64,000 bases of DNA from Candidatus Aenigmatarchaeota archaeon (GTDB lineage Archaea; Aenigmatarchaeota; Aenigmatarchaeia; GW2011-AR5): NCBI GenBank assembly GCA_043799385.1, contig JAZDNV010000001.1, positions 32,265-96,264 of the forward strand, in the 5' to 3' direction. Of the stretch, positions 938 to 52,514 are shown piece after piece. Under the pieces are notes generated by a model. The model saw only the letters and a list, made by a program, of their open reading frames with translations. It was not told the origin of the DNA and searched no databases. The position numbers were made by a program, and so were the translations under genes. Within the stretch, counting starts at the first letter, position 1; each line of letters starts with the position of its first letter.

Positions 938-1195
938 TCATCTTTCCATATCCTGCAGGGCCCTGCTGCCGTTTTTTGTTATTATGTAGCAGGTGGAGCC
1001 AATAGGATTTATCGTCGTGACGAGATTCTTCTCTATGAGGCCGCGGGTCGCCGAATCTATTATCACGTTCAAATCCTTCCCCGCATTGCCATCGTCTTTG
1101 ATGATTTTTTTCAACTCGTTCTTTGTCACTAGGCTGGACTCTCCTATCTTCCTCAGCAATTTTTCCTCGATTTTTGTCAGACTCATTTTAATCAA
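938..1195 (-). CDS. Small winged-helix DNA-binding protein (MarR/TrmB-like fold), function unknown
   Basis: 85-aa ORF with an HTH-like core (SLVTKNELKKII...GLIEKNLV). It overlaps the upstream DJ-1 gene by 8 nt, so it is probably co-transcribed. It belongs to a set of similar small wHTH ORFs in this window. Confidence 0.45.
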   Translation of the reverse strand: MIKMSLTKIEEKLLRKIGESSLVTKNELKKIIKDDGNAGKDLNVIIDSATRGLIEKNLVTTINPIGSTCYIITKNGSRALQDMER

Positions 1196-3019: not shown

Positions 3020-3574
3020 CTATTCATCGACGACATTTTCATTTACTTCATTAACGCCTTCTTCGCTTTCTTCTGATATCTCCTGCGGTTCTACATTTTC
3101 ATCGGTTTTTGCATCTACCTTTTCCTTCCTTGCTATACCTAGCATGAGTAGGTCATCGAAATCCTTGGCTATTCTTCTGGTTTTTCGCATGAAAGACTTC
3201 ATCGACGACTCAACGCGGTCCATTAGGCGATTAACTGTATTAGCCGGAAGCATGTAACCCTTGATAAAGCCGCTGCCGGCTGGTATTTTCACGAACTCTA
3301 TGAGGCCGATAGAACGCCACTTTCTAAGTTCTTCGTAAGTTTGCGATTGCGAAACCTGCAATATCTGCGATATCTTTTCTATCGACAACGGGATGTTATC
3401 CTTTTTCATCTTTAGCAATTCCAGAAGTAGTTCCGCATGCCTTGCCTTACTCTCTTTCCTTTTCAGTCCAAGACGCTTTACCAAAACACGGGATAGGTCT
3501 TCTAAACTCAAATCCGTCTTATGGTCAGGCGGGCTTATTCTTTGAAAAACCATATCAGATAACTTTTTTTTCAT
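3020..3574 (-). CDS. Winged-helix transcriptional regulator with acidic C-terminal tail
   Basis: HTH-like segment SIEKISQILQVSQSQTYEELRKWRSIGLIEF and a highly acidic C-terminus (EPQEISEESEEGVNEVNENVVDE). Confidence 0.5.
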   Translation of the reverse strand: MKKKLSDMVFQRISPPDHKTDLSLEDLSRVLVKRLGLKRKESKARHAELLLELLKMKKDNIPLSIEKISQILQVSQSQTYEELRKWRSIGLIEFVKIPAGSGFIKGYMLPANTVNRLMDRVESSMKSFMRKTRRIAKDFDDLLMLGIARKEKVDAKTDENVEPQEISEESEEGVNEVNENVVDE

Positions 3575-3922
3575 AAAATCATCTTATGAATTGCTATTTT
3601 TTACGCTGCTTTTTTCGCTGGAGGGTATGGTATTGGCTGAATATATACACAGCAAGTGGTCAGTAATTTGCAATTTTTGGCCATAACAACCGCCAACTGA
3701 GCGGCAAAAACCATCAGGAATTTCGTGCAATAATATTCCAGACAAAAAATTAGTCATTTTATCACATTCATAATTAGGCAAGAGTAAGTTTTTAAAGTGC
3801 TCGGTTTTTCATATGTTTGGTATGTAACCTTGGTTACATAGCAGACGTCCTTGTCCATGGACTTTTTGGTTTTCACTACTTATGATAGAAATTATGGTCA
3901 AGAATTGGAGTAAGCAGGTTTT

Positions 3923-4609
3923 TCATATCTGACTATCTGAGATGTGTCCGTTTTTTTCAGAATTAGGGTAGAATCTTATTTTTTGTCCGCCTGACCTATG
4001 CAAAGTCACAGGCGTCTCCAGGATATGTGTTAAATACCTGTTTTTTCTCTTGTATGGTTCTTCTCCCACTATCCTTGCAATGAAGTATCCGACCAAAAGA
4101 GCCATGCCACAGGCAGCAAGATAACCAAAACCCTCTATACCTTTTTCTACCTGACCTGTGCTAACACCCTGATATATTCCTGTTCCAAGCGCAGACAGGT
4201 CTATTAGTAAATCCGTACCAACTGCAACATCTCCAACCAACTCCCATCTGTCTGCCATAGCCCTGCTGTAATCTGCTTCAGAACCAACTGATTTATTGGT
4301 AACATTGATGATATCTGCTGTCTTGAGGCTTGACCTAGATGATGGATATAAATGGATTTCTTTCACAGGAAGTTCGTATTCCTTTTTCTCCCTTCCAATT
4401 TTTTCTCTCACATGTCTCATCAACCTTCTTACAGGCTTTAGTTCGTTCATGCGCCTCGTTCTCTCAAGGTCCTCAGCTTCCTTGTATCCTTTGTAGAGGT
4501 TTTCCATGAAATCGTCTGTCAACTCTCCGTCTTTGACTATATCATCAAAGCTGTTTATTTTGACGTCTAAGGTGCTTTTTTTCTCATTGAATTCGGTAGT
4601 TATTGACAT
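3923..4609 (-). CDS. Hypothetical protein: N-terminal coiled coil plus a C-terminal glycine-zipper transmembrane hairpin
   Basis: The N-terminus is charged and helical. The C-terminal half, VGDVAVGTDLLIDLSALGTGIYQGVSTGQVEKGIEGFGYLAACGMALLVGYFIA, has GxxxG-type glycine-zipper TM segments. No known family recognised. Confidence 0.5.
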   Translation of the reverse strand: MSITTEFNEKKSTLDVKINSFDDIVKDGELTDDFMENLYKGYKEAEDLERTRRMNELKPVRRLMRHVREKIGREKKEYELPVKEIHLYPSSRSSLKTADIINVTNKSVGSEADYSRAMADRWELVGDVAVGTDLLIDLSALGTGIYQGVSTGQVEKGIEGFGYLAACGMALLVGYFIARIVGEEPYKRKNRYLTHILETPVTLHRSGGQKIRFYPNSEKNGHISDSQI

Positions 4610-4671
4610 AGTTCAGCTATAGAAGAAAAACTCTTAAATCTAGTGGGAAAAACGTGGGTATATATAGTTGC

Positions 4672-4953
4672 CTATTTCTTCTTCTTCAGTTTCGAGAATT
4701 TCCTTAGGACGTTCTCGAAATCGCCTGCCAAATCAAGTCCGTCCTGCGTTAATTTTACGAACTTTATCCTACCCTCTTTCTCGAACTCAACAAGACCCAG
4801 GGTCATGAATATGTCTAGTAGTTTCACCGTGTGCGAATACGTGCAATCTGTTTCTTTTGCAAGGATGGATACGTAAGCGTCGCCCTTGTTTTTTATATTG
4901 AGAAGTAGTCTTACCGGCTTTCTTCTGAGAAACAATTCCTCCATCTCCGACAT
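4672..4953 (-). CDS. Small winged-helix transcriptional regulator (MarR/PadR-like)
   Basis: 93 aa; VSILAKETDCTYSHTVKLLDIFMTLGLVEFEKEGR is a recognition helix followed by a wing. Basic C-terminus. Confidence 0.55.
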   Translation of the reverse strand: MSEMEELFLRRKPVRLLLNIKNKGDAYVSILAKETDCTYSHTVKLLDIFMTLGLVEFEKEGRIKFVKLTQDGLDLAGDFENVLRKFSKLKKKK

Positions 4954-5028: not shown

Positions 5029-5238
5029 ATGGAAATGACGTTGCAGTCGATGCGGAGATTGTTCAAAAAAGCTGGCGCAAAGCGTGTTTCTGACAAGGCT
5101 GCCATAGAATTGGGCAAAATAGTTGAAACAAAGGCTAGTTCGATGCTTCTGGAGGCAAAAAAAGTGTCGGAACACAGCGGTCGCAGAACGATATTGAAAA
5201 GGGATGTAAAACTCGCAAAAAAGATTCTGGAAGAGTAA
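5029..5238 (+). CDS. Archaeal histone (HMf-type histone fold)
   Basis: 69 aa; the pattern RLFKKAGAKRVSDKAAIELGKIVE...HSGRRTILKRDVKLAKK aligns with HMfA/B (IGRIIKNAGAERVSDDARIALAKVLEE...HAGRKTIKAEDIELA). Confidence 0.85.
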   Translation: MEMTLQSMRRLFKKAGAKRVSDKAAIELGKIVETKASSMLLEAKKVSEHSGRRTILKRDVKLAKKILEE

Positions 5239-5271
5239 CAACTTTAAACATTTTTCCGTGTTATTATCACC

Positions 5272-6231
5272 ATGCTTGACGAGCTAGTCAAAACGGTTTC
5301 TGCTGCTTCTGGTCTTAACGAAGAAAACATACGGATCAAGATAGCTGAAAAACAGAGGGAACTTTCTGGTCTAGTGTCCGAAGAAGGCGCATGCCATATA
5401 ATTGCTCGAGAGCTTGGCGTAAAGCTGATACGTGAATGCAAGAGACTCAACATAAAGAACGTTATTCCTGGGATGCAGAACGTGGATATAATTGGCAGGA
5501 TAATAAAAATCTTCCCTGCTCGCGAGTTTGGCAATGAAAAGAAGGGCAGAGTAGCCAGCATCTTTGTTGCAGACGAGACCGGACCTATAAGATTATCGCT
5601 ATGGGACAGCGAAACCGACAAAATAAGCGAGTTCAGCGTCGGCGATGTCATCCAGATAAAGGGTTACGTAAAGGATAACCTCGGCGAGCCAGAGATACGT
5701 CTAGGCAGGTACGGCTCAATCGAAAAAATAACACATGAGATGCCTGAGTTAAAAAATCTAGGCGGATTTGAGAGAAGAACAGAGAGAATTGCAATATACG
5801 AGATGAAAGAGAACCAATATTGCGAAATTCGAGCTTGCTTAATAAGCGTATTCGAGTCAAATCCGTTTTACAGCGTCTGCTCAAAGTGCGGTTCGCGGTT
5901 GAAGGATGATAAATGTCCAGAACATGGCGTTGTGGAGCCGGAGTATGAACTGGTCTTGACGGGCATAATAGACGATGGCTCAGACTCGATAAGGGCGGTA
6001 TTTTTCCGCGACAACGCCGAGAAGGTATTGGGCATGGCAAAGAATGACGCGAAGAAGGTCGTTTTCGGCAGAGGCGTTCCTGCATTGATAGATAAAATAG
6101 AATTAGGGGTGGAGTTTATATTTGCTGGCAGGGTCAAGAAAAATATGTTATTCGACAGGCTTGAGTTTATAGTCAATAGCATTAAAAATGTTGATGTTAA
6201 GGATGAGATAGAGATGATGCTGAATGCCTAA
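5272..6231 (+). CDS. Replication protein A-like single-stranded-DNA-binding protein (OB fold plus zinc ribbon)
   Basis: An OB-fold region ([12 protein letters not shown]...[18 protein letters not shown]) and a C4 zinc-ribbon (CSKCGSRL...CPEHG) typical of archaeal RPA. Overlaps radA by 8 nt, so the two are likely an operon. Confidence 0.7.
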
Positions 6232-7600: not shown

Positions 7601-8818
7601 TTACGACTTTACAACAAGCGTTTTTATCCGCGGGGAAAGCCTGTAAATGAACGTCTTGTCACGCTTTTCCCTTTCAACGAGATTTTCCTGAAGCAGTATT
7701 TTCAATACGTTGTTTAACGACCGCACAGCATGCTGCCTTGACTTGTATTTTTCCAGATCGAGCATGTCGGCAATGTCGCCTGGCGAAAGCGATTTTTTGC
7801 TCAAGAAATTTATGACCTCTTTCTGCATGTTTGTCAGTCTGTCAAGAATCTTCATCGTCGTTGGCTTCTCTTCTATATCTTCGCGCAAAAGGTCGGGTGT
7901 TATTCTTCTTCTTTCCTCCTTAATTGCTAAATTAACTAGCTCGTTTGATAATCTTAAAACTTCGCGCGGAAAGCCGCCTGTCCTCTCGTATATCATATCT
8001 ATTGTTTCCGGCAGGAACGGCTCTATATCATTGCCGCCAACGCTCGCTATCCTCTTTCTAATCAACTCAAACGTTTCTTCTTTTGTTAGGGATAAAAGCT
8101 CTATTCTGGCCACGATTCTTTTTCTTAACGTTTCGAGTTTGTCTTTTATATGGTCCTCGAATATAGGCAAACCTGATAAAATAATAGACATGTTTTCCAC
8201 CTGGTCGCTCAGAACGCGGAGCCATTCCAGAATATCGATATCCGCTTCATGCGATTCGTCAAACATTATAATCAGGTATTTATTTCTCAATTTTTTGTTC
8301 AGAAAACCGGAAATATCATACGTATTTTTTATGTTAGGGTTAAATGGCCTTAAAAACCATGAAATCCTGAATTTTTCTTTAAATATCCTCACAAATTCAT
8401 CCGGCTTGTAAGGTGGTTTTGCGATGTAAATATGTTCATAACCTAGGGGAAGATTGTTAGAAACCCATTTTAGCAAGGTTGTCTTTCCAGATCCCGTTGG
8501 ACCTGTAACTAGTATTATCTTATGCTTTTCTTCCAGCAATGATAGTATCTCATCCCGTTGCTCACTGTAGCCGACTGATATAGAAGGCGTTATTCTGAAC
8601 GTGAACGGGTTAGCAGACCAACCAACATCGTTGAGCCATTTTTTGACTATTTTAGGTTCTAATCTGGCAGTTTTATGGGTTTTTTCGTATTTTTTCTCTT
8701 CTTTTTCTACTCTAGCTTCTCTCTTCTCTTCTATTGGCTTTTCTATGTTAGGGATAACTGCCACGCTTGGAGCTGTATTTTTGCTGCTCTCGTCGCTAAC
8801 TGTATTCTCATCAACCAT
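7601..8818 (-). CDS. Divergent Orc1/Cdc6-like AAA+ ATPase with C-terminal winged helix and a charged N-terminal extension
   Basis: Walker A GPTGSGKTTLL, Walker B MFDESH, and a C-terminal wH domain (KEVINFLSKKSLSPGDIADMLD...). The AAA+ plus wH architecture is that of Orc1/Cdc6, but the sequence differs from the canonical copy at 25558. It sits next to a dense inverted repeat cluster. Confidence 0.6.
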   Translation of the reverse strand: MVDENTVSDESSKNTAPSVAVIPNIEKPIEEKREARVEKEEKKYEKTHKTARLEPKIVKKWLNDVGWSANPFTFRITPSISVGYSEQRDEILSLLEEKHKIILVTGPTGSGKTTLLKWVSNNLPLGYEHIYIAKPPYKPDEFVRIFKEKFRISWFLRPFNPNIKNTYDISGFLNKKLRNKYLIIMFDESHEADIDILEWLRVLSDQVENMSIILSGLPIFEDHIKDKLETLRKRIVARIELLSLTKEETFELIRKRIASVGGNDIEPFLPETIDMIYERTGGFPREVLRLSNELVNLAIKEERRRITPDLLREDIEEKPTTMKILDRLTNMQKEVINFLSKKSLSPGDIADMLDLEKYKSRQHAVRSLNNVLKILLQENLVEREKRDKTFIYRLSPRIKTLVVKS

Positions 8819-8849
8819 ATGCCTATTATGTACAGCTGTTTTATTAAAA

Positions 8850-9260
8850 GATTTTCGTGTTCAACTTCATATTTTTCTTCGTGAAGTTCATCAAATTTTA
8901 AACAAGTTCACTAAAGTTTTATAGACTTTAATGAACTTCATCAAATTTCACAATGAATTCACGTGAAGTTCATGAAGATCTTTTTTAATTTCGTGAAGTA
9001 AGATGAAGGTTTTGTGAAGGGTTTTGTGAATATTTATTACGTATTTTAGTTGTAATAAATGCATAAATGTGAGTTTTTCATATAATTTCTCCAAGGTTTG
9101 GTAAGAGTATTCATATTATGTTCATTTAGCTTCATGGAATATTCATAGATGTTCATTTTAACTTCATATAACTTCACGCAACTTCACGTAATCTTCACGA
9201 AATGTTCACGAAGCCTGTTATGAATGTGGGTAAAATTGTGAGAAATAAAGCCATTTTCGT
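8850..9260. repeat. Dense cluster of short direct and inverted repeats (core AACTTCACG / CGTGAAGTT, plus GTTCATCAAATTT) flanking an AT-rich centre; candidate replication origin or initiator-binding array
   Basis: The left half carries CGTGAAGTTCATCAAATTT, GAACTTCATCAAATTTCAC, TTCACGTGAAGTTCATGAAG, TTCGTGAAGTAAG and TTTGTGAAGGGTTTTGTGAAT. The right half carries four tandem copies AACTTCACGC / AACTTCACGT / AATCTTCACGA / AATGTTCACGA at 9168..9215, which are the reverse complement of the left-half unit. The centre 9030..9160 is AT-rich. Confidence 0.6.
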
Positions 9261-9375
9261 GAGATTGAAATAATAAAATTTTAAAATTTAAATTCAAAAT
9301 ATTGACAATAAAAGCTGAAAACCTAAAATATTTCCTTTTTAGACTGAAAATAACACAATATTAGTGTAATTATTG

Positions 9376-9690
9376 CTAAATTTTGTTCAAAACACGAAGG
9401 AGTTTCATGATCTCGGTTATGTCCTTACCTTCCTGAAGTCTCTCGAGGACGAACGGCTTTAATTTTATGACACGGATTATCGGTTTGCCGTTGCCCAAAC
9501 TGGAATCATCGACAAGCGGCTTAAGAATCCCTTCTACGTATTTAGCCACAGTAGCCGGAGCCATTCCTAGCTCTTCGGATAACCGTCTCAACCAGATGCC
9601 GTCTGGATTAGCCCGCAAAGCCCTTACAATAGATGAAATCTTCCTATCATCAAAGCCCTTTTTCCTTCCCACGCCTAATAAAATGAACAC
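9376..9690 (-). CDS. Small winged-helix DNA-binding protein embedded in the repeat region
   Basis: 104 aa with an HTH core (LSEELGMAPATVAKYVEGIL). Flanked on both sides by TTCAC/TTCAT repeat units. Confidence 0.45.
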   Translation of the reverse strand: MFILLGVGRKKGFDDRKISSIVRALRANPDGIWLRRLSEELGMAPATVAKYVEGILKPLVDDSSLGNGKPIIRVIKLKPFVLERLQEGKDITEIMKLLRVLNKI

Positions 9691-39949: not shown

Positions 39950-40050
39950 TGGGTCGGGGCAGAATTGAACTGCCGGCCTCCACGTTGTAAGCGTGGCGTC
40001 ATACCAATTTCCGCAGACGGCTTTAGCCGTCAACGCTAGACCACCGACCC
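39950..40050 (-). tRNA. tRNA-Val (anticodon UAC) with a 28-nt non-canonical intron in the D-loop
   Basis: Acceptor GGGTCGG/CCGACCC plus A; anticodon stem CCACG/CGTGG, loop CTTACAA; T-arm GGCAG-TTCAATT-CTGCC; variable AGGCC. The D-arm GTCTAG[CGTTGACGGCTAAAGCCGTCTGCGGAAA]TTGGTATGAC becomes canonical once the hairpin-forming 28-nt block is removed. Confidence 0.65.
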
Positions 40051-49739: not shown

Positions 49740-52514
49740 ATGGTGTTTAATCTATTTTCTGAAAAACTGCAGAAACTGATAAAGGATAAAGGATTTCTCG
49801 AGCCGACGTTACCGCAGAGAATAGGGATACCAGAAATAATGAACGGAAAGGACGTTTTGATAATCGCGCCTACGGGCACTGGAAAGACGGAAACGTGCAT
49901 GCTTCCGTTGTTCGATAAGGTAGCAAAAGAAAATAGCAAGCCGATATCAATTTTGTATATAAATCCGCTGCGTTCGCTGAGTCGCGATCTCCTTGACCGA
50001 CTAGTTTGGTGGGCGGACAAGCTGGACCTAGACATATCTGTCCGCCATGGTGACGTTTCGGCTAAGGAACGTGCGGTGCAGCGTGAATTGCCGCCGCACG
50101 TGCTGATAACTACGCCAGAGACTTTGGCAGCAATATTAACTGGCAAAATCATGCGCGAACACCTGAAGAACGTCAAATACGTAGTGATAGACGAGATTCA
50201 TGAACTAGTGGAATCAAAGCGCGGCATTCAGCTATCGATTCTGCTTGAGCGGTTACGCGAGCTTGCCGGAAATTTCCAGCGAATAGGATTGTCTGCAACC
50301 GTAGGCTCGCCTGAGACTGTCGCAAAATTTCTGAGCGAAGACGCGAAGATAATCCACGCAGAGCAGGAGAAGAGATATGATATAACCGTTGAGTCCGTAA
50401 AACCGGCGGAGAGCGACAACGCAATCGCAGATGAGTTACTGATAGGCGCGACAACCACAGCAAGGCTAAGGCGTCTTCATGAACTGATACAATCGCACAA
50501 GAGCGTTCTCATTTTCACGAATACAAGAGAAACGGCAGAAGTTCTTTCATCGCGACTGCGAAGGCTGGACAGAGAACTAAAACAGGCAGTGCATCACGGT
50601 TCGCTTTCAAAGGAAAAGAGAATAAAGGGAGAACAAGACTTCAAGAAGCAGGCGCTGAGATCGCTGATTGCGACTAGCTCTCTGGAGCTGGGGATAGACA
50701 TAGGGTCGATAGATTTAGTAGTGCAGTATCTATCACCCAGGCAAGCGACAAGACTAATCCAACGCGTCGGCCGTGCAGGACATAAAATTAGCGAGGTGAG
50801 TAAAGGAATAATACTTTCCGGTGACGAGGATTTGTTCGAATCCGTTGTCATAGGCGAGCGTGCTATGTTAAAAAAACTTGAGGGTATAAAGATGCACGAA
50901 ATGGCTTTGGATGTTCTGGCTACGCAAATCGTTGGCTTGGCGTTGGACGAATACGATATCAGCGACGAAAAGATATTCAAGATAATCAAAAGAGCCTATC
51001 CTTACAGAAACATCCAGAAAAGCGAGTTAACAGATATACTGAAATTTTTGGACGACCTGAGGCTTTTGTGGCTCAACCCGACTAAAAATGGCTATAGCGT
51101 CAGGAGAAGAAGGAAATCTTGGCAGTACTATTTCGAAAATCTATCGACCATCCCGGACACAATCCAATACCGTATTATATCAATAATAGAAAACGAGCCT
51201 ATCGGTTTGTTGGACGAAGAATTCATCGCAGAGCACGGCATGCCTGGCGAGAAATTCGTCTGCTCAGGTCGCGCTTGGAAGATAATCCAGGTTGACGGCA
51301 ACAAAGTCACAGTTGAGCCTATAGAGGATATAGAGTCAGCAATACCAGCATGGGAAGGAGAGCTAATTCCCGTACCGTATAATGTTGGGCAGGAAGTAGG
51401 CAGATTGAGGAGAAATATATCAAAGGACCGTGATGAATTGACCAAGAAATACAAGATTGACCGCAATTCAGCAAATGAGATGACAAAACTGATTGAGAAT
51501 CATGCAAAGAACCACACGGTGCCTGACGATGCAAATTTTCTTATAGAAGACTATAGTGACTTCATAATAATCCATTCATGCTGCGGCTCTCTTGTAAACG
51601 ATACGATTGGAAGATATCTTGCTGCGCTGATAACGTCTGAGACGGGTGTCTCTGTAAACATGAAAATCGATCCATACAGGATAATGCTCCAGACAGTTGC
51701 AAAGGTCGAGAAGGTCGAGAAGATGTTGAAAGACGCCAAGAATCTGGAAAGCGTTCTGAGGTCAGAGATAGAGCGTTCGCAATTATTCAAGCACCGATTT
51801 CTGCAGGTTGCCAGAAGATTCGGTATACTCTCACGGAATGCGAGGTATGACAGAATTAACATGAATAAACTGATATCAGTTTATGCTGACTCGCCTGCGT
51901 ATAAAGAAACGCTCAAGGAGATATTCCTGGAAAAGATGGATTTAGAGAATGCAACAAATATTCTGGAGAAAATAGGCAAGGGCGAGATAAAAATAAAACT
52001 GCAGAAAGGTCTTAGTATTCTAGGCGAGCTAGGGTTGACGCATCAATTCGCGGAAGTGATGAAGCCAAGGATGCCAAAAGAGGAGATATACAGAGCCTTC
52101 AAGCGTCGGCTGCTGGCGACAAGAGTCCGTTTGCTATGCGTAAATTGTGGTGACTATAATCTCATTAGGACGGTTCGCGAGGTCGACGAGCAACCTGATT
52201 GCCCGAAGTGCAACTCGCGGTTGATTGCTTGTTTAAGAAAGAGCCAGATAAATGCAATAAATATAGTTAAGAAAAAGATAGGAAAAAAACCATTGAGCAG
52301 CGAAGAGCTGAAAGAATTCCAGACAATAAGAAGAAGTGCAGACCTTGTAATCGTATACGGCAGAAAAGCAGTCGAGTGCTTGGCTGCGCACGGCGTTGGC
52401 CCTGAGACGGCTGCACGTATTCTGGCAATGCAACAGCCGACAAAAGAGAGGTTCTACAAGGACATACTTGACGCAGAGAAGATGTTCGTCAAAACGAAGC
52501 CCTACTGGAAATAA
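49740..52514 (+). CDS. lhr: Lhr-type large superfamily-2 helicase with C-terminal zinc ribbon
   Basis: Walker A APTGTGKTE, DEIH box, helicase C motifs and a CVNCGDY...CPKCNS ribbon. At about 920 aa its length fits Lhr-core proteins. Confidence 0.8.
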   Translation: MVFNLFSEKLQKLIKDKGFLEPTLPQRIGIPEIMNGKDVLIIAPTGTGKTETCMLPLFDKVAKENSKPISILYINPLRSLSRDLLDRLVWWADKLDLDISVRHGDVSAKERAVQRELPPHVLITTPETLAAILTGKIMREHLKNVKYVVIDEIHELVESKRGIQLSILLERLRELAGNFQRIGLSATVGSPETVAKFLSEDAKIIHAEQEKRYDITVESVKPAESDNAIADELLIGATTTARLRRLHELIQSHKSVLIFTNTRETAEVLSSRLRRLDRELKQAVHHGSLSKEKRIKGEQDFKKQALRSLIATSSLELGIDIGSIDLVVQYLSPRQATRLIQRVGRAGHKISEVSKGIILSGDEDLFESVVIGERAMLKKLEGIKMHEMALDVLATQIVGLALDEYDISDEKIFKIIKRAYPYRNIQKSELTDILKFLDDLRLLWLNPTKNGYSVRRRRKSWQYYFENLSTIPDTIQYRIISIIENEPIGLLDEEFIAEHGMPGEKFVCSGRAWKIIQVDGNKVTVEPIEDIESAIPAWEGELIPVPYNVGQEVGRLRRNISKDRDELTKKYKIDRNSANEMTKLIENHAKNHTVPDDANFLIEDYSDFIIIHSCCGSLVNDTIGRYLAALITSETGVSVNMKIDPYRIMLQTVAKVEKVEKMLKDAKNLESVLRSEIERSQLFKHRFLQVARRFGILSRNARYDRINMNKLISVYADSPAYKETLKEIFLEKMDLENATNILEKIGKGEIKIKLQKGLSILGELGLTHQFAEVMKPRMPKEEIYRAFKRRLLATRVRLLCVNCGDYNLIRTVREVDEQPDCPKCNSRLIACLRKSQINAINIVKKKIGKKPLSSEELKEFQTIRRSADLVIVYGRKAVECLAAHGVGPETAARILAMQQPTKERFYKDILDAEKMFVKTKPYWK

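Follow-up and report, generated by a model that had tools for sequence, protein, structure and literature searches.

An orphan membrane-protein gene in a variable slot between two conserved helix-turn-helix genes of Aenigmarchaeota, and a conserved non-coding element at the predicted promoter of the next unit

Background

Lrs14-type archaeal helix-turn-helix (HTH) regulators bind their own promoters, an arrangement that amounts to autoregulation, while small stand-alone archaeal proteins of 93-98 amino acids (aa), such as those of Pfam family PF25212 and A. fulgidus AF_1382, consist of a single winged-helix domain. Here, we describe a locus with likenesses to both, on contig JAZDNV010000001.1 of a Candidatus Aenigmatarchaeota archaeon (assembly GCA_043799385.1, positions 32,265 to 96,264)—a stretch of 64,000 nucleotides (nt) that we call the window and within which all positions are counted unless another locus is named. 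In this locus, the genes of two putative DNA-binding proteins, of 93 and 184 aa, bracket the gene of a 228-aa orphan membrane protein. An earlier note on this DNA took the three genes for a regulated membrane-active or stress module, possibly toxin-like, with a perfect palindrome as a candidate operator. We instead favour, with modest confidence, an account with three parts: a conserved gene backbone, an orphan protein with two transmembrane (TM) helices whose gene sits in a variable slot of that backbone, and a conserved element in the predicted promoter region of the following unit. The features needed to follow the argument are listed here; the four open reading frames (ORFs) among them that the earlier note had named all lie on the minus strand, where it had placed them.

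5029-5238, divergent from the 93-aa gene: annotated histone gene
4672..4953, minus strand: 93-aa ORF, a small winged-helix protein (NCBI V1900_00260)
3923..4609, minus strand: 228-aa ORF, an orphan membrane protein (NCBI V1900_00255, 'hypothetical protein', 100% identical)
3746..3933, minus strand: conserved non-coding element of ~190 nt, single-copy in the window
3584..3781, minus strand: 65-aa ORF (57 aa counted from the ATG at 3757)
3020..3574, minus strand: 184-aa HTH protein with an acidic C-terminal tail (NCBI V1900_00250)

A conserved gene backbone with a variable slot

We compared the window with the neighbourhoods of seven 184-aa homologs on large Aenigmarchaeota contigs (L012, L013, L014, L024, L025, L026, and L027), finding that one backbone is common to the window and all seven—RadA, RPA, histone, a winged-helix protein of 96-101 aa, a variable slot, the 184-aa homolog, DJ-1/PfpI, and then CPSase or AlaRS. 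The small winged-helix proteins of this backbone are 71-77% identical to the 93-aa protein of the window, as established by tblastn for the copies next to the histone gene in L012 and L013 and by reading the sequences, which are near-identical in L024-L027. What occupies the slot differs from locus to locus and includes YidD, NUDIX, small ORFs, and dCMP deaminase. A 228-like gene is absent from six of the seven compared loci (L012, L013, L014, L024, L025, and L026), and both HTH genes are present there, at 65-91% identity. Since the HTH genes are kept in these six loci without a 228-like gene, they are not dedicated regulators of the membrane protein, and the idea of the trio as a dedicated regulator-effector module does not survive the comparison. 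What the comparison establishes is that the two HTH genes, which encode putative DNA-binding proteins, are lineage-wide, evolve slowly, and are retained with or without the membrane gene.

In the seventh locus, L027, the slot holds a distant relative of the 228-aa protein (P0023, 241 aa, 28% identity), in the order 97-aa winged-helix gene, YidD, P0023, element, small ORF, and 188-aa homolog. A second distant relative (P0024, 244 aa, 26% identity) appears to occupy the same slot on a contig from ENA, judging by matching contig and product lengths. The order of small winged-helix gene, 228-like gene, and 184-like gene thus recurs in L027 and in one ENA contig, and conservation of the trio among relatives holds only in part: the order is found in just three to four lineages, whereas six loci keep the HTH genes without a 228-like neighbour. 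Because P0023, and apparently P0024, share the slot, we regard the 228-like gene as an old, fast-diverging, and often lost occupant of it, one that would have been patchily retained between the two HTH genes. Just downstream of the 184-aa homolog in L027 lies a Cas12f1-like/TnpB gene (PF07282, 368 aa, L027 9127-10233) accompanied by a small DUF7557 gene, a mobile element inserted into that copy of the backbone.

The two conserved HTH proteins

By sequence comparison, the 93-aa protein is a winged helix. It matches the 95-aa protein AF_1382 (PDB 2qvo) over residues 6-83, nearly its full length, with an E value of 7.5e-5, and scores 27.4 bits against PF25212 (HVO_A0114) in Pfam, just below the gathering cut-off of 27.6; its matches to HTH_27, MarR, and ArsR are sub-threshold. 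Of the two small winged-helix proteins that the earlier note had placed on either side of the membrane gene, this one is thereby upheld, whereas the 184-aa protein yielded only sub-threshold HTH matches. The best of these in Pfam, HTH_Crp_2, reached 19.8 bits where the cut-off is 27. In an alignment of 24 family members, which contains 58 invariant columns, residues 45-96 match HTH_Crp_2 in 12 and TrmB in 9 members, all below threshold. Further weak matches are to Lrs14/Sta1 (E 0.002-0.005) and the Csa3 C-terminal domain, and PADLOC gave the HTH proteins weak generic winged-helix matches to Csa3, CasR, and CARF C-terminal domains. A profile search returned no PDB relative of the 184-aa protein. 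Its homologs number more than 254 and are 65-91% identical among the 120 listed, and all of those listed that bear organism names are Aenigmarchaeota. Because of this extreme conservation, we suggest that the 184-aa protein is a general rather than a specific regulator.

A further small protein of the block, 85 aa long, is encoded at 938-1195 (minus strand), adjoining DJ-1/PfpI, and is 53-63% identical to 78-81-aa proteins of L012, L013, and L014. Being helix-rich and basic, it may be a third small DNA-binding-like protein of the block.

A conserved element between the 228-aa and 184-aa genes

A gap of 348 nt follows the 228-aa gene before the 184-aa gene begins, and its first ~190 nt are not ordinary spacer. 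They form an element that is present in all 10 of the 10 Aenigmarchaeota loci we examined, in the same orientation and with the 184-aa homolog downstream of it (outside the window: L012 3921-4110, L013 4206-4384, L014 3999-4187, L015 134-322, L016 494-683, L024 4976-5161, L025 5683-5840, L026 5222-5372, and L027 7618-7809). Identity to the window reaches 90% in L016 and 81% in L015, and the element is detectable in L012, L013, and L014. E values from nhmmer and blastn across L012-L016 and L024-L027 range from 6e-8 to 4e-49, and a hidden Markov model of the element recovers it from the independent loci L024 (2.8e-15), L026 (5.6e-13), L025 (5.9e-8), and L027 (6e-26). Its conserved blocks are TTACTCC, GTAATTTC, CCATGGACA, CAAGGTTAY, CCAAACAT, and GAAAAAC, and it contains the following features in the window.

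3853..3862, both strands: palindromic box GTCCATGGAC with core CCATGGACA, which ranks among the most conserved blocks of the element (mean column identity 0.81 in the block 3859-3850)
3821..3840, both strands: perfect inverted repeat TATGTAACC-TT-GGTTACATA, with 9-nt arms and an imperfect extension to 15-nt arms
3803..3814 and 3917-3928, minus strand: 12-nt direct repeat ATATGAAAAACC, the second copy overlapping the stop codon of the 228-aa gene
3789..3796, minus strand: conserved TATA-box candidate TTTAAAAA, RTTTWAWA in most aligned loci
3754..3771, minus strand: ATGAATGTGATAAAATGA, a conserved start region (AAATTATGAAT) that overlaps the ATG of the 57/65-aa ORF (ATGA)

The TATA-box candidate TTTAAAAA lies 25 nt upstream of a conserved ATG at 3771, and in L012 and L014 one or more downstream ATGs start a called small gene. 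In these same two loci, the AAATTATGAAT region opens a gene for a 65/66-aa TM protein; in the window, a stop follows after 5 codons. The GTCCATGGAC box is unique in the window at 0 mismatches, and ATGAAAAACC occurs there 3 times against 0.4 expected. With a regulon in mind, we looked for the boxes of the element elsewhere in the 64-kb window and found none, and a scan of contigs with the element core ACTTTAAAAACTTACTCTT gave 7 matches, all bacterial and attributable to chance.

The palindrome that the earlier note had put forward as an operator does exist, although it is slightly longer than reported there, extending over 3821-3840 with perfect 9-nt arms. Such palindromes are as frequent in this DNA as chance would have them: counting perfect palindromes whose arms are 8 nt or longer and whose spacer is no more than 6 nt, we observed 8 in the 64-kb window, where Markov-1 simulations gave a mean of 8.85, and several of the others equal or exceed this one in length (a perfect 20-mer at 51865-51884 is one example). 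Nor is the half-site TGTAACC enriched, with 7 occurrences against 4.3 expected. Conservation is divided unevenly between the two arms—the right arm is the conserved CAAGGTTAY box (on the gene strand), and the left arm belongs to the 10-nt bin with the lowest conservation (0.49). The dyad is perfect in the window alone, carries 1 mismatch in L016, and has an unrelated left arm in seven other loci. Because it lies downstream of the 228-aa gene, inside an element that holds the predicted promoter of the next transcription unit, the palindrome is not the operator of that gene. The broader impression that this region looks regulatory was borne out, in that the palindrome falls within a conserved non-coding element with a conserved TATA-box candidate.

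An element of this kind might instead work as RNA, namely as a small non-coding RNA or 5' leader RNA spanning 3933..3746, with the palindrome as its hairpin. Its strong conservation in the absence of coding periodicity would fit, as would the T-run that follows it in most loci, the single right-arm change in L016 (C to T), which keeps a G-U pair on the gene-strand RNA, and a different short hairpin at the same place in L015. However, RNAalifold recovered practically no consensus fold on either strand (-0.65, -0.78, and 0 kcal/mol), the hairpin is not maintained in L012, L013, L014, L024, L025, or L026, and the intergenic region, folded as a single sequence, did no better than shuffled sequences (z -0.37 and -1.2). 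Rfam gave no match for the element at either the gathering or the E-value threshold, and a conserved TATA-box candidate lies inside it. On balance, we think an RNA unlikely, and prefer to read the element as promoter-region DNA. Several other candidates were also discarded. A hidden conserved peptide was rejected, as there is no 3-nt periodicity and a 40-aa ORF is broken in L015 and L014; no trace of a dCMP deaminase relic was found in the 348-nt gap by tblastn; and a replication origin with origin recognition boxes (ORBs) was set aside without a formal test, the element having neither an AT-rich unwinding region nor inverted ORB pairs.

The small Cys-containing ORF at 3584..3781 is present as an ORF, but its status as a gene found no support from annotation or coding signal. 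Its codon score, -0.06, is typical of non-coding DNA, while the six neighbouring genes tested score +0.22 to +0.28, and it is not called in the NCBI annotation. In L015 (310-504) and L024 (~5150-5350), a family of small Cys/His proteins of 64-66 aa, with the pattern MTDFG..TSRCxxC..GYR..WYHxSH, is encoded right after the element; the two are 40% identical to each other (E 4e-15), the L024 member is unannotated, and in L016 the gene is cut off (671-697). This family is possibly zinc-binding. The 65-aa ORF keeps the first four codons of the family and a faint C-terminal echo of it (E 0.16), and probably represents what decay has left of a small Cys/His protein gene, not a working gene. In L012 (4093-4293) and L014 (4165-4362), the corresponding place is taken by a 65/66-aa predicted membrane protein (MNMPK...LLLI(I/A)GAVGVILFWRG(I/V)WALAD...), followed by dCMP deaminase and the 184-aa homolog. 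As judged from these loci, evolution has exchanged one small gene for another behind the element, the same predicted promoter standing before a different gene in L012 and L014.

The 228-aa membrane protein

The Kyte-Doolittle hydropathy profile of the 228-aa protein has one strong segment, at residues 164-182 (1.91), and a weaker, Asp-containing one at 124-142 (1.39, below the usual threshold of 1.6). AlphaFold2 (AF2), run with distant homologs included, gave a model with a predicted local distance difference test (pLDDT) score of 84.8 and a predicted template modelling (pTM) score of 0.74, whereas with 17 close sequences alone the result was poor (pLDDT 58.9). In the better model, two helices, 97-151 and 154-198, form a very long hairpin that turns at 152-153 and joins both segments at its hydrophobic tip (~124-182). 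Hydropathy and model thus agree that the protein is, by prediction, a transmembrane helical hairpin, and on this point the earlier note was right. The N-terminal part is modelled as a small α/β domain; the β-strands of the model span 4-8, 13-18, 84-89, 201-204, and 210-213, and the region that the note had called a coiled coil corresponds to two predicted helices, 32-56 and 59-71.

Ten residues are invariant over 23 family sequences (W122, D137, G144, F161, A165, G168, E183, P185, K187, and Y192), Asp137 among them lying in the middle of the first hydrophobic helix (TM1). The second hydrophobic helix is followed by a basic EEPxKRKxRY stretch, seen as a KRKNR belt in the alignment; counted from the sequence by the positive-inside rule, 4 lysine or arginine residues follow TM2, against 1 in the tip loop. 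Because of this basic belt and the lack of a signal peptide, we infer that both termini lie inside (N-in/C-in). The 'glycine zipper' proposed earlier holds for this one sequence, which does contain a ladder of small-xxx-small motifs, but the family keeps only A140/G144 and G162/A165/G168, and the family consensus at zipper positions 166, 170, and 174 reads V, A, and L.

Scans of the 228-aa protein against Pfam, NCBIfam, PADLOC, and PHROGs gave no match, and with PADLOC also silent on the 65-aa product, nothing places either among defence or toxin-antitoxin systems. Foldseek found nothing significant for the model (E > 1); the insignificant matches included the α-pore-forming toxins SmhB and AhlB and the translocator SipB. 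Weak matches of the family to bacteriorhodopsin TM helices in a PDB profile search (E 0.02) were rejected as matches of hydrophobic composition.

These results bear directly on the module envisaged by the earlier note, in which the three genes would form a dedicated membrane-active, stress, or toxin-like system and the winged-helix proteins would control a pore-forming or holin-like 228-aa protein through the palindrome. The gene order shared by the window, L027, and the ENA contig is what such a module would lead one to expect, as is the 228-like gene followed by the element in L016, and both the hydrophobic helical hairpin and the names SmhB, AhlB, and SipB among the insignificant Foldseek matches point the same way. 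Yet the HTH genes are lineage-wide and do without the membrane gene in six loci, the palindrome stands 3' of the 228-aa gene, is unconserved, and is within chance, and the protein has no PADLOC or PHROG match, no phage or lysis context, and, at 228 aa with a structured cytoplasmic domain, little in common with holins. A regulated toxin-like module is therefore largely unsupported, and we consider it very unlikely.

Relatives and origin of the membrane protein

No homolog of the 228-aa protein had been recognised in the earlier note, but we found 17 relatives at 49-77% identity and, beyond these, more distant ones. The family is small: 18 members turned up among 5.8 billion proteins, an exhaustive profile search of 1.84 billion gave 10 representatives, and a profile scan of contigs from 185,579 species representatives returned no relative. 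In L016, the gene of the closest member, P0011 (77% identity), has the same non-coding sequence behind it as the 228-aa gene has in the window. Relatives at 50-58% identity lie on contigs of 43-55% GC with varied neighbours, which include ABC transporters, SDR, β-oxidation genes, and Cas1/2. Some are found beside ion-transport genes (TrkH/TrkA/Usp/NhaP/CLC/P-type ATPase in one case, TrkH/TrkA and the tail of a P-type ATPase in another). The TrkA encoded beside one of the 50-58% relatives has its best named matches in Chloroflexota/Dehalococcoidia, at 63-65% identity, and because of this resemblance we suggest that the group is probably bacterial. A literature search on Aenigmarchaeota, horizontal gene transfer, and Chloroflexi found nothing specific.

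The higher-GC homologs also share a conserved upstream sequence of ~60 nt, though their neighbours differ (L001 200-260, L002 1040-1100, L004 5920-5985, L005 4410-4470, and L009 130-190). This sequence includes an inverted repeat, CTTTAG-N8-CTAAAG, together with a Shine-Dalgarno-like box, GGTGGTG, and the gene in these contigs seems to travel with its own control region.

Similarity to higher-GC proteins raises another explanation—that the 228-aa gene is a recent, horizontally acquired passenger unrelated to the locus, with the palindrome and repeats as scars of its insertion. In keeping with this, identity is 50-58% to proteins of the higher-GC (43-55%) contigs, against 26-28% to P0023 and P0024 of Aenigmarchaeota; the slot is variable among genomes; and the 12-nt repeat ATATGAAAAACC stands at the stop codon and again 114 nt downstream. 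On the other hand, the gene has native codon usage (a score of +0.24, like its neighbours) and the GC content of its surroundings, and both copies of the repeat lie inside the element, which genomes without the gene also keep. Distant homologs in the same Aenigmarchaeota slot fit a gene that was inherited vertically while diverging fast, or one that Aenigmarchaeota passed on to others. A recent passenger accordingly strikes us as improbable, and we return to the long-standing, fast-diverging slot occupant as the preferred account.

Other features of the window

One more feature was read from the sequence near the 228-aa gene, for which it may serve as a TATA box.

4659..4666, minus strand: TATATATA, possible TATA box of the 228-aa gene, whose ATG follows after ~50 nt

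Farther along the window, a 405-aa AAA+ protein with a C-terminal winged-helix-like tail is encoded at 7601-8818 (minus strand), adjoining a very AT-rich stretch at 8820-9400 (GC 0.25-0.29). Genes of similar size (395-421 aa, Pfam ATPase_2/AAA_22) lie near RadA in L013, L025, and L027 and are presumed homologs on the basis of size and Pfam family. The 405-aa gene and the AT-rich stretch could be an Orc1/Cdc6-like initiator beside a replication origin. ARAGORN found no tRNA in the 64-kb window, and Rfam gave one borderline tRNA match (39954-40013, 60 nt, 29.6 bits against a cut-off of 29).

Discussion

Under the account that we favour, the product of the slot gene would be an N-in/C-in protein in which a cytoplasmic α/β domain sits on a two-helix stalk, and the distal ~23 + 23 residues of the stalk would cross the membrane. 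This predicted tip would carry the invariant Asp137 in its first helix and be closed by the basic belt after the second. We tentatively propose, with low confidence, that this is an oligomerising membrane protein for cation or proton handling rather than a toxin. The element, for its part, would be the TATA promoter of the next unit, which comprises a small ORF, sometimes dCMP deaminase, and then the 184-aa gene. It would act at the level of DNA, with the CCATGGACA box, the CAAGGTTAY box, and the GAAAAAC repeats as putative protein-binding sites upstream of the TATA box. The 184-aa HTH protein, which is co-conserved with the element, would be the obvious candidate binder, by autoregulation, and the perfect dyad of the window may represent a lineage-specific extension of the conserved right half-site.

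A number of considerations weigh against this account. The TATA box, the transcription start, and the operon structure are predictions from sequence, and the 184-aa protein is a candidate binder of the element. The ~130 nt conserved upstream of the TATA box are unusually long for an archaeal promoter, and could be a small RNA or leader. Recurrence of the trio order in four lineages makes a functional link of the 228-like gene to its neighbours possible. The proposed ion role draws on architecture, one invariant Asp, and a few neighbourhoods, two of which, P0012 and L004, come from closely related contigs. Likewise, the Chloroflexota assignment of the higher-GC group follows from one neighbour gene, TrkA, and should be taken as a suggestion.

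A bolder reading of the same material would go further on both counts. The 228-aa family would then be an undescribed group of small oligomeric membrane proteins—cytoplasmic domain, stalk, two-TM hairpin, and invariant Asp—serving as a cation or proton conduit or sensor and exchanged between Aenigmarchaeota and Chloroflexota, and the ~190-nt element would be a new cis-regulatory or RNA element of Aenigmarchaeota tied to a highly conserved DNA-binding protein. We regard this combination as quite unlikely.

Had a toxin-like module been supported, it would have meant a new membrane-active system in DPANN archaea, but the evidence speaks otherwise. The remaining findings are moderately useful for annotating a lineage about which little is known. 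The two HTH proteins, very conserved, specific to Aenigmarchaeota, and in the sources either unnamed or bearing generic computed names, are likely general chromatin or transcription factors, and the conserved element, the more interesting by-product of this check, offers a concrete candidate DNA target for both. The orphan two-TM family, with its predicted intramembrane carboxylate, is apparently distributed across the archaeal-bacterial divide, and could bear on gene exchange between symbionts and hosts if the taxonomic assignment is true.

Comparison with known systems

The class named in the earlier note, that of holins and glycine-zipper pore-formers, and the related ClyA-family α-pore-forming toxins resemble the 228-aa protein in having small-xxx-small motifs and long helices that end in a hydrophobic hairpin. 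Unlike them, it is a 228-aa protein with a folded cytoplasmic domain, gives Foldseek matches only at E > 1 and none with PHROG or PADLOC, lacks a lysis or phage context, and belongs to a family that does not keep the zipper; its gene lies in a chromosomal housekeeping neighbourhood (histone, RPA, RadA, and the HTH genes). The model is similar in plan to CorA/ZntB and MCU, in which, as here, an N-terminal cytoplasmic domain leads through a long helix into TM1, followed by a short outside loop, TM2, and a basic belt, with both termini inside. The acidic residue in the first hydrophobic helix recalls their pore-side helix, by analogy only, since the 228-aa protein has no sequence or fold match to CorA or MCU and lacks the GMN and DxxE motifs, and so cannot be counted among them.

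For the 184-aa protein, the nearest described regulators are Lrs14/Sta1 and the TrmB/Crp-like families. It differs from them in an extra N-terminal region and an acidic tail, and it scores well short of what membership in these families requires (18 bits, with cut-offs of 80-90). It resembles them in its weak matches and in its setting, the 184-aa gene being accompanied in every genome by a conserved upstream element with dyad boxes.

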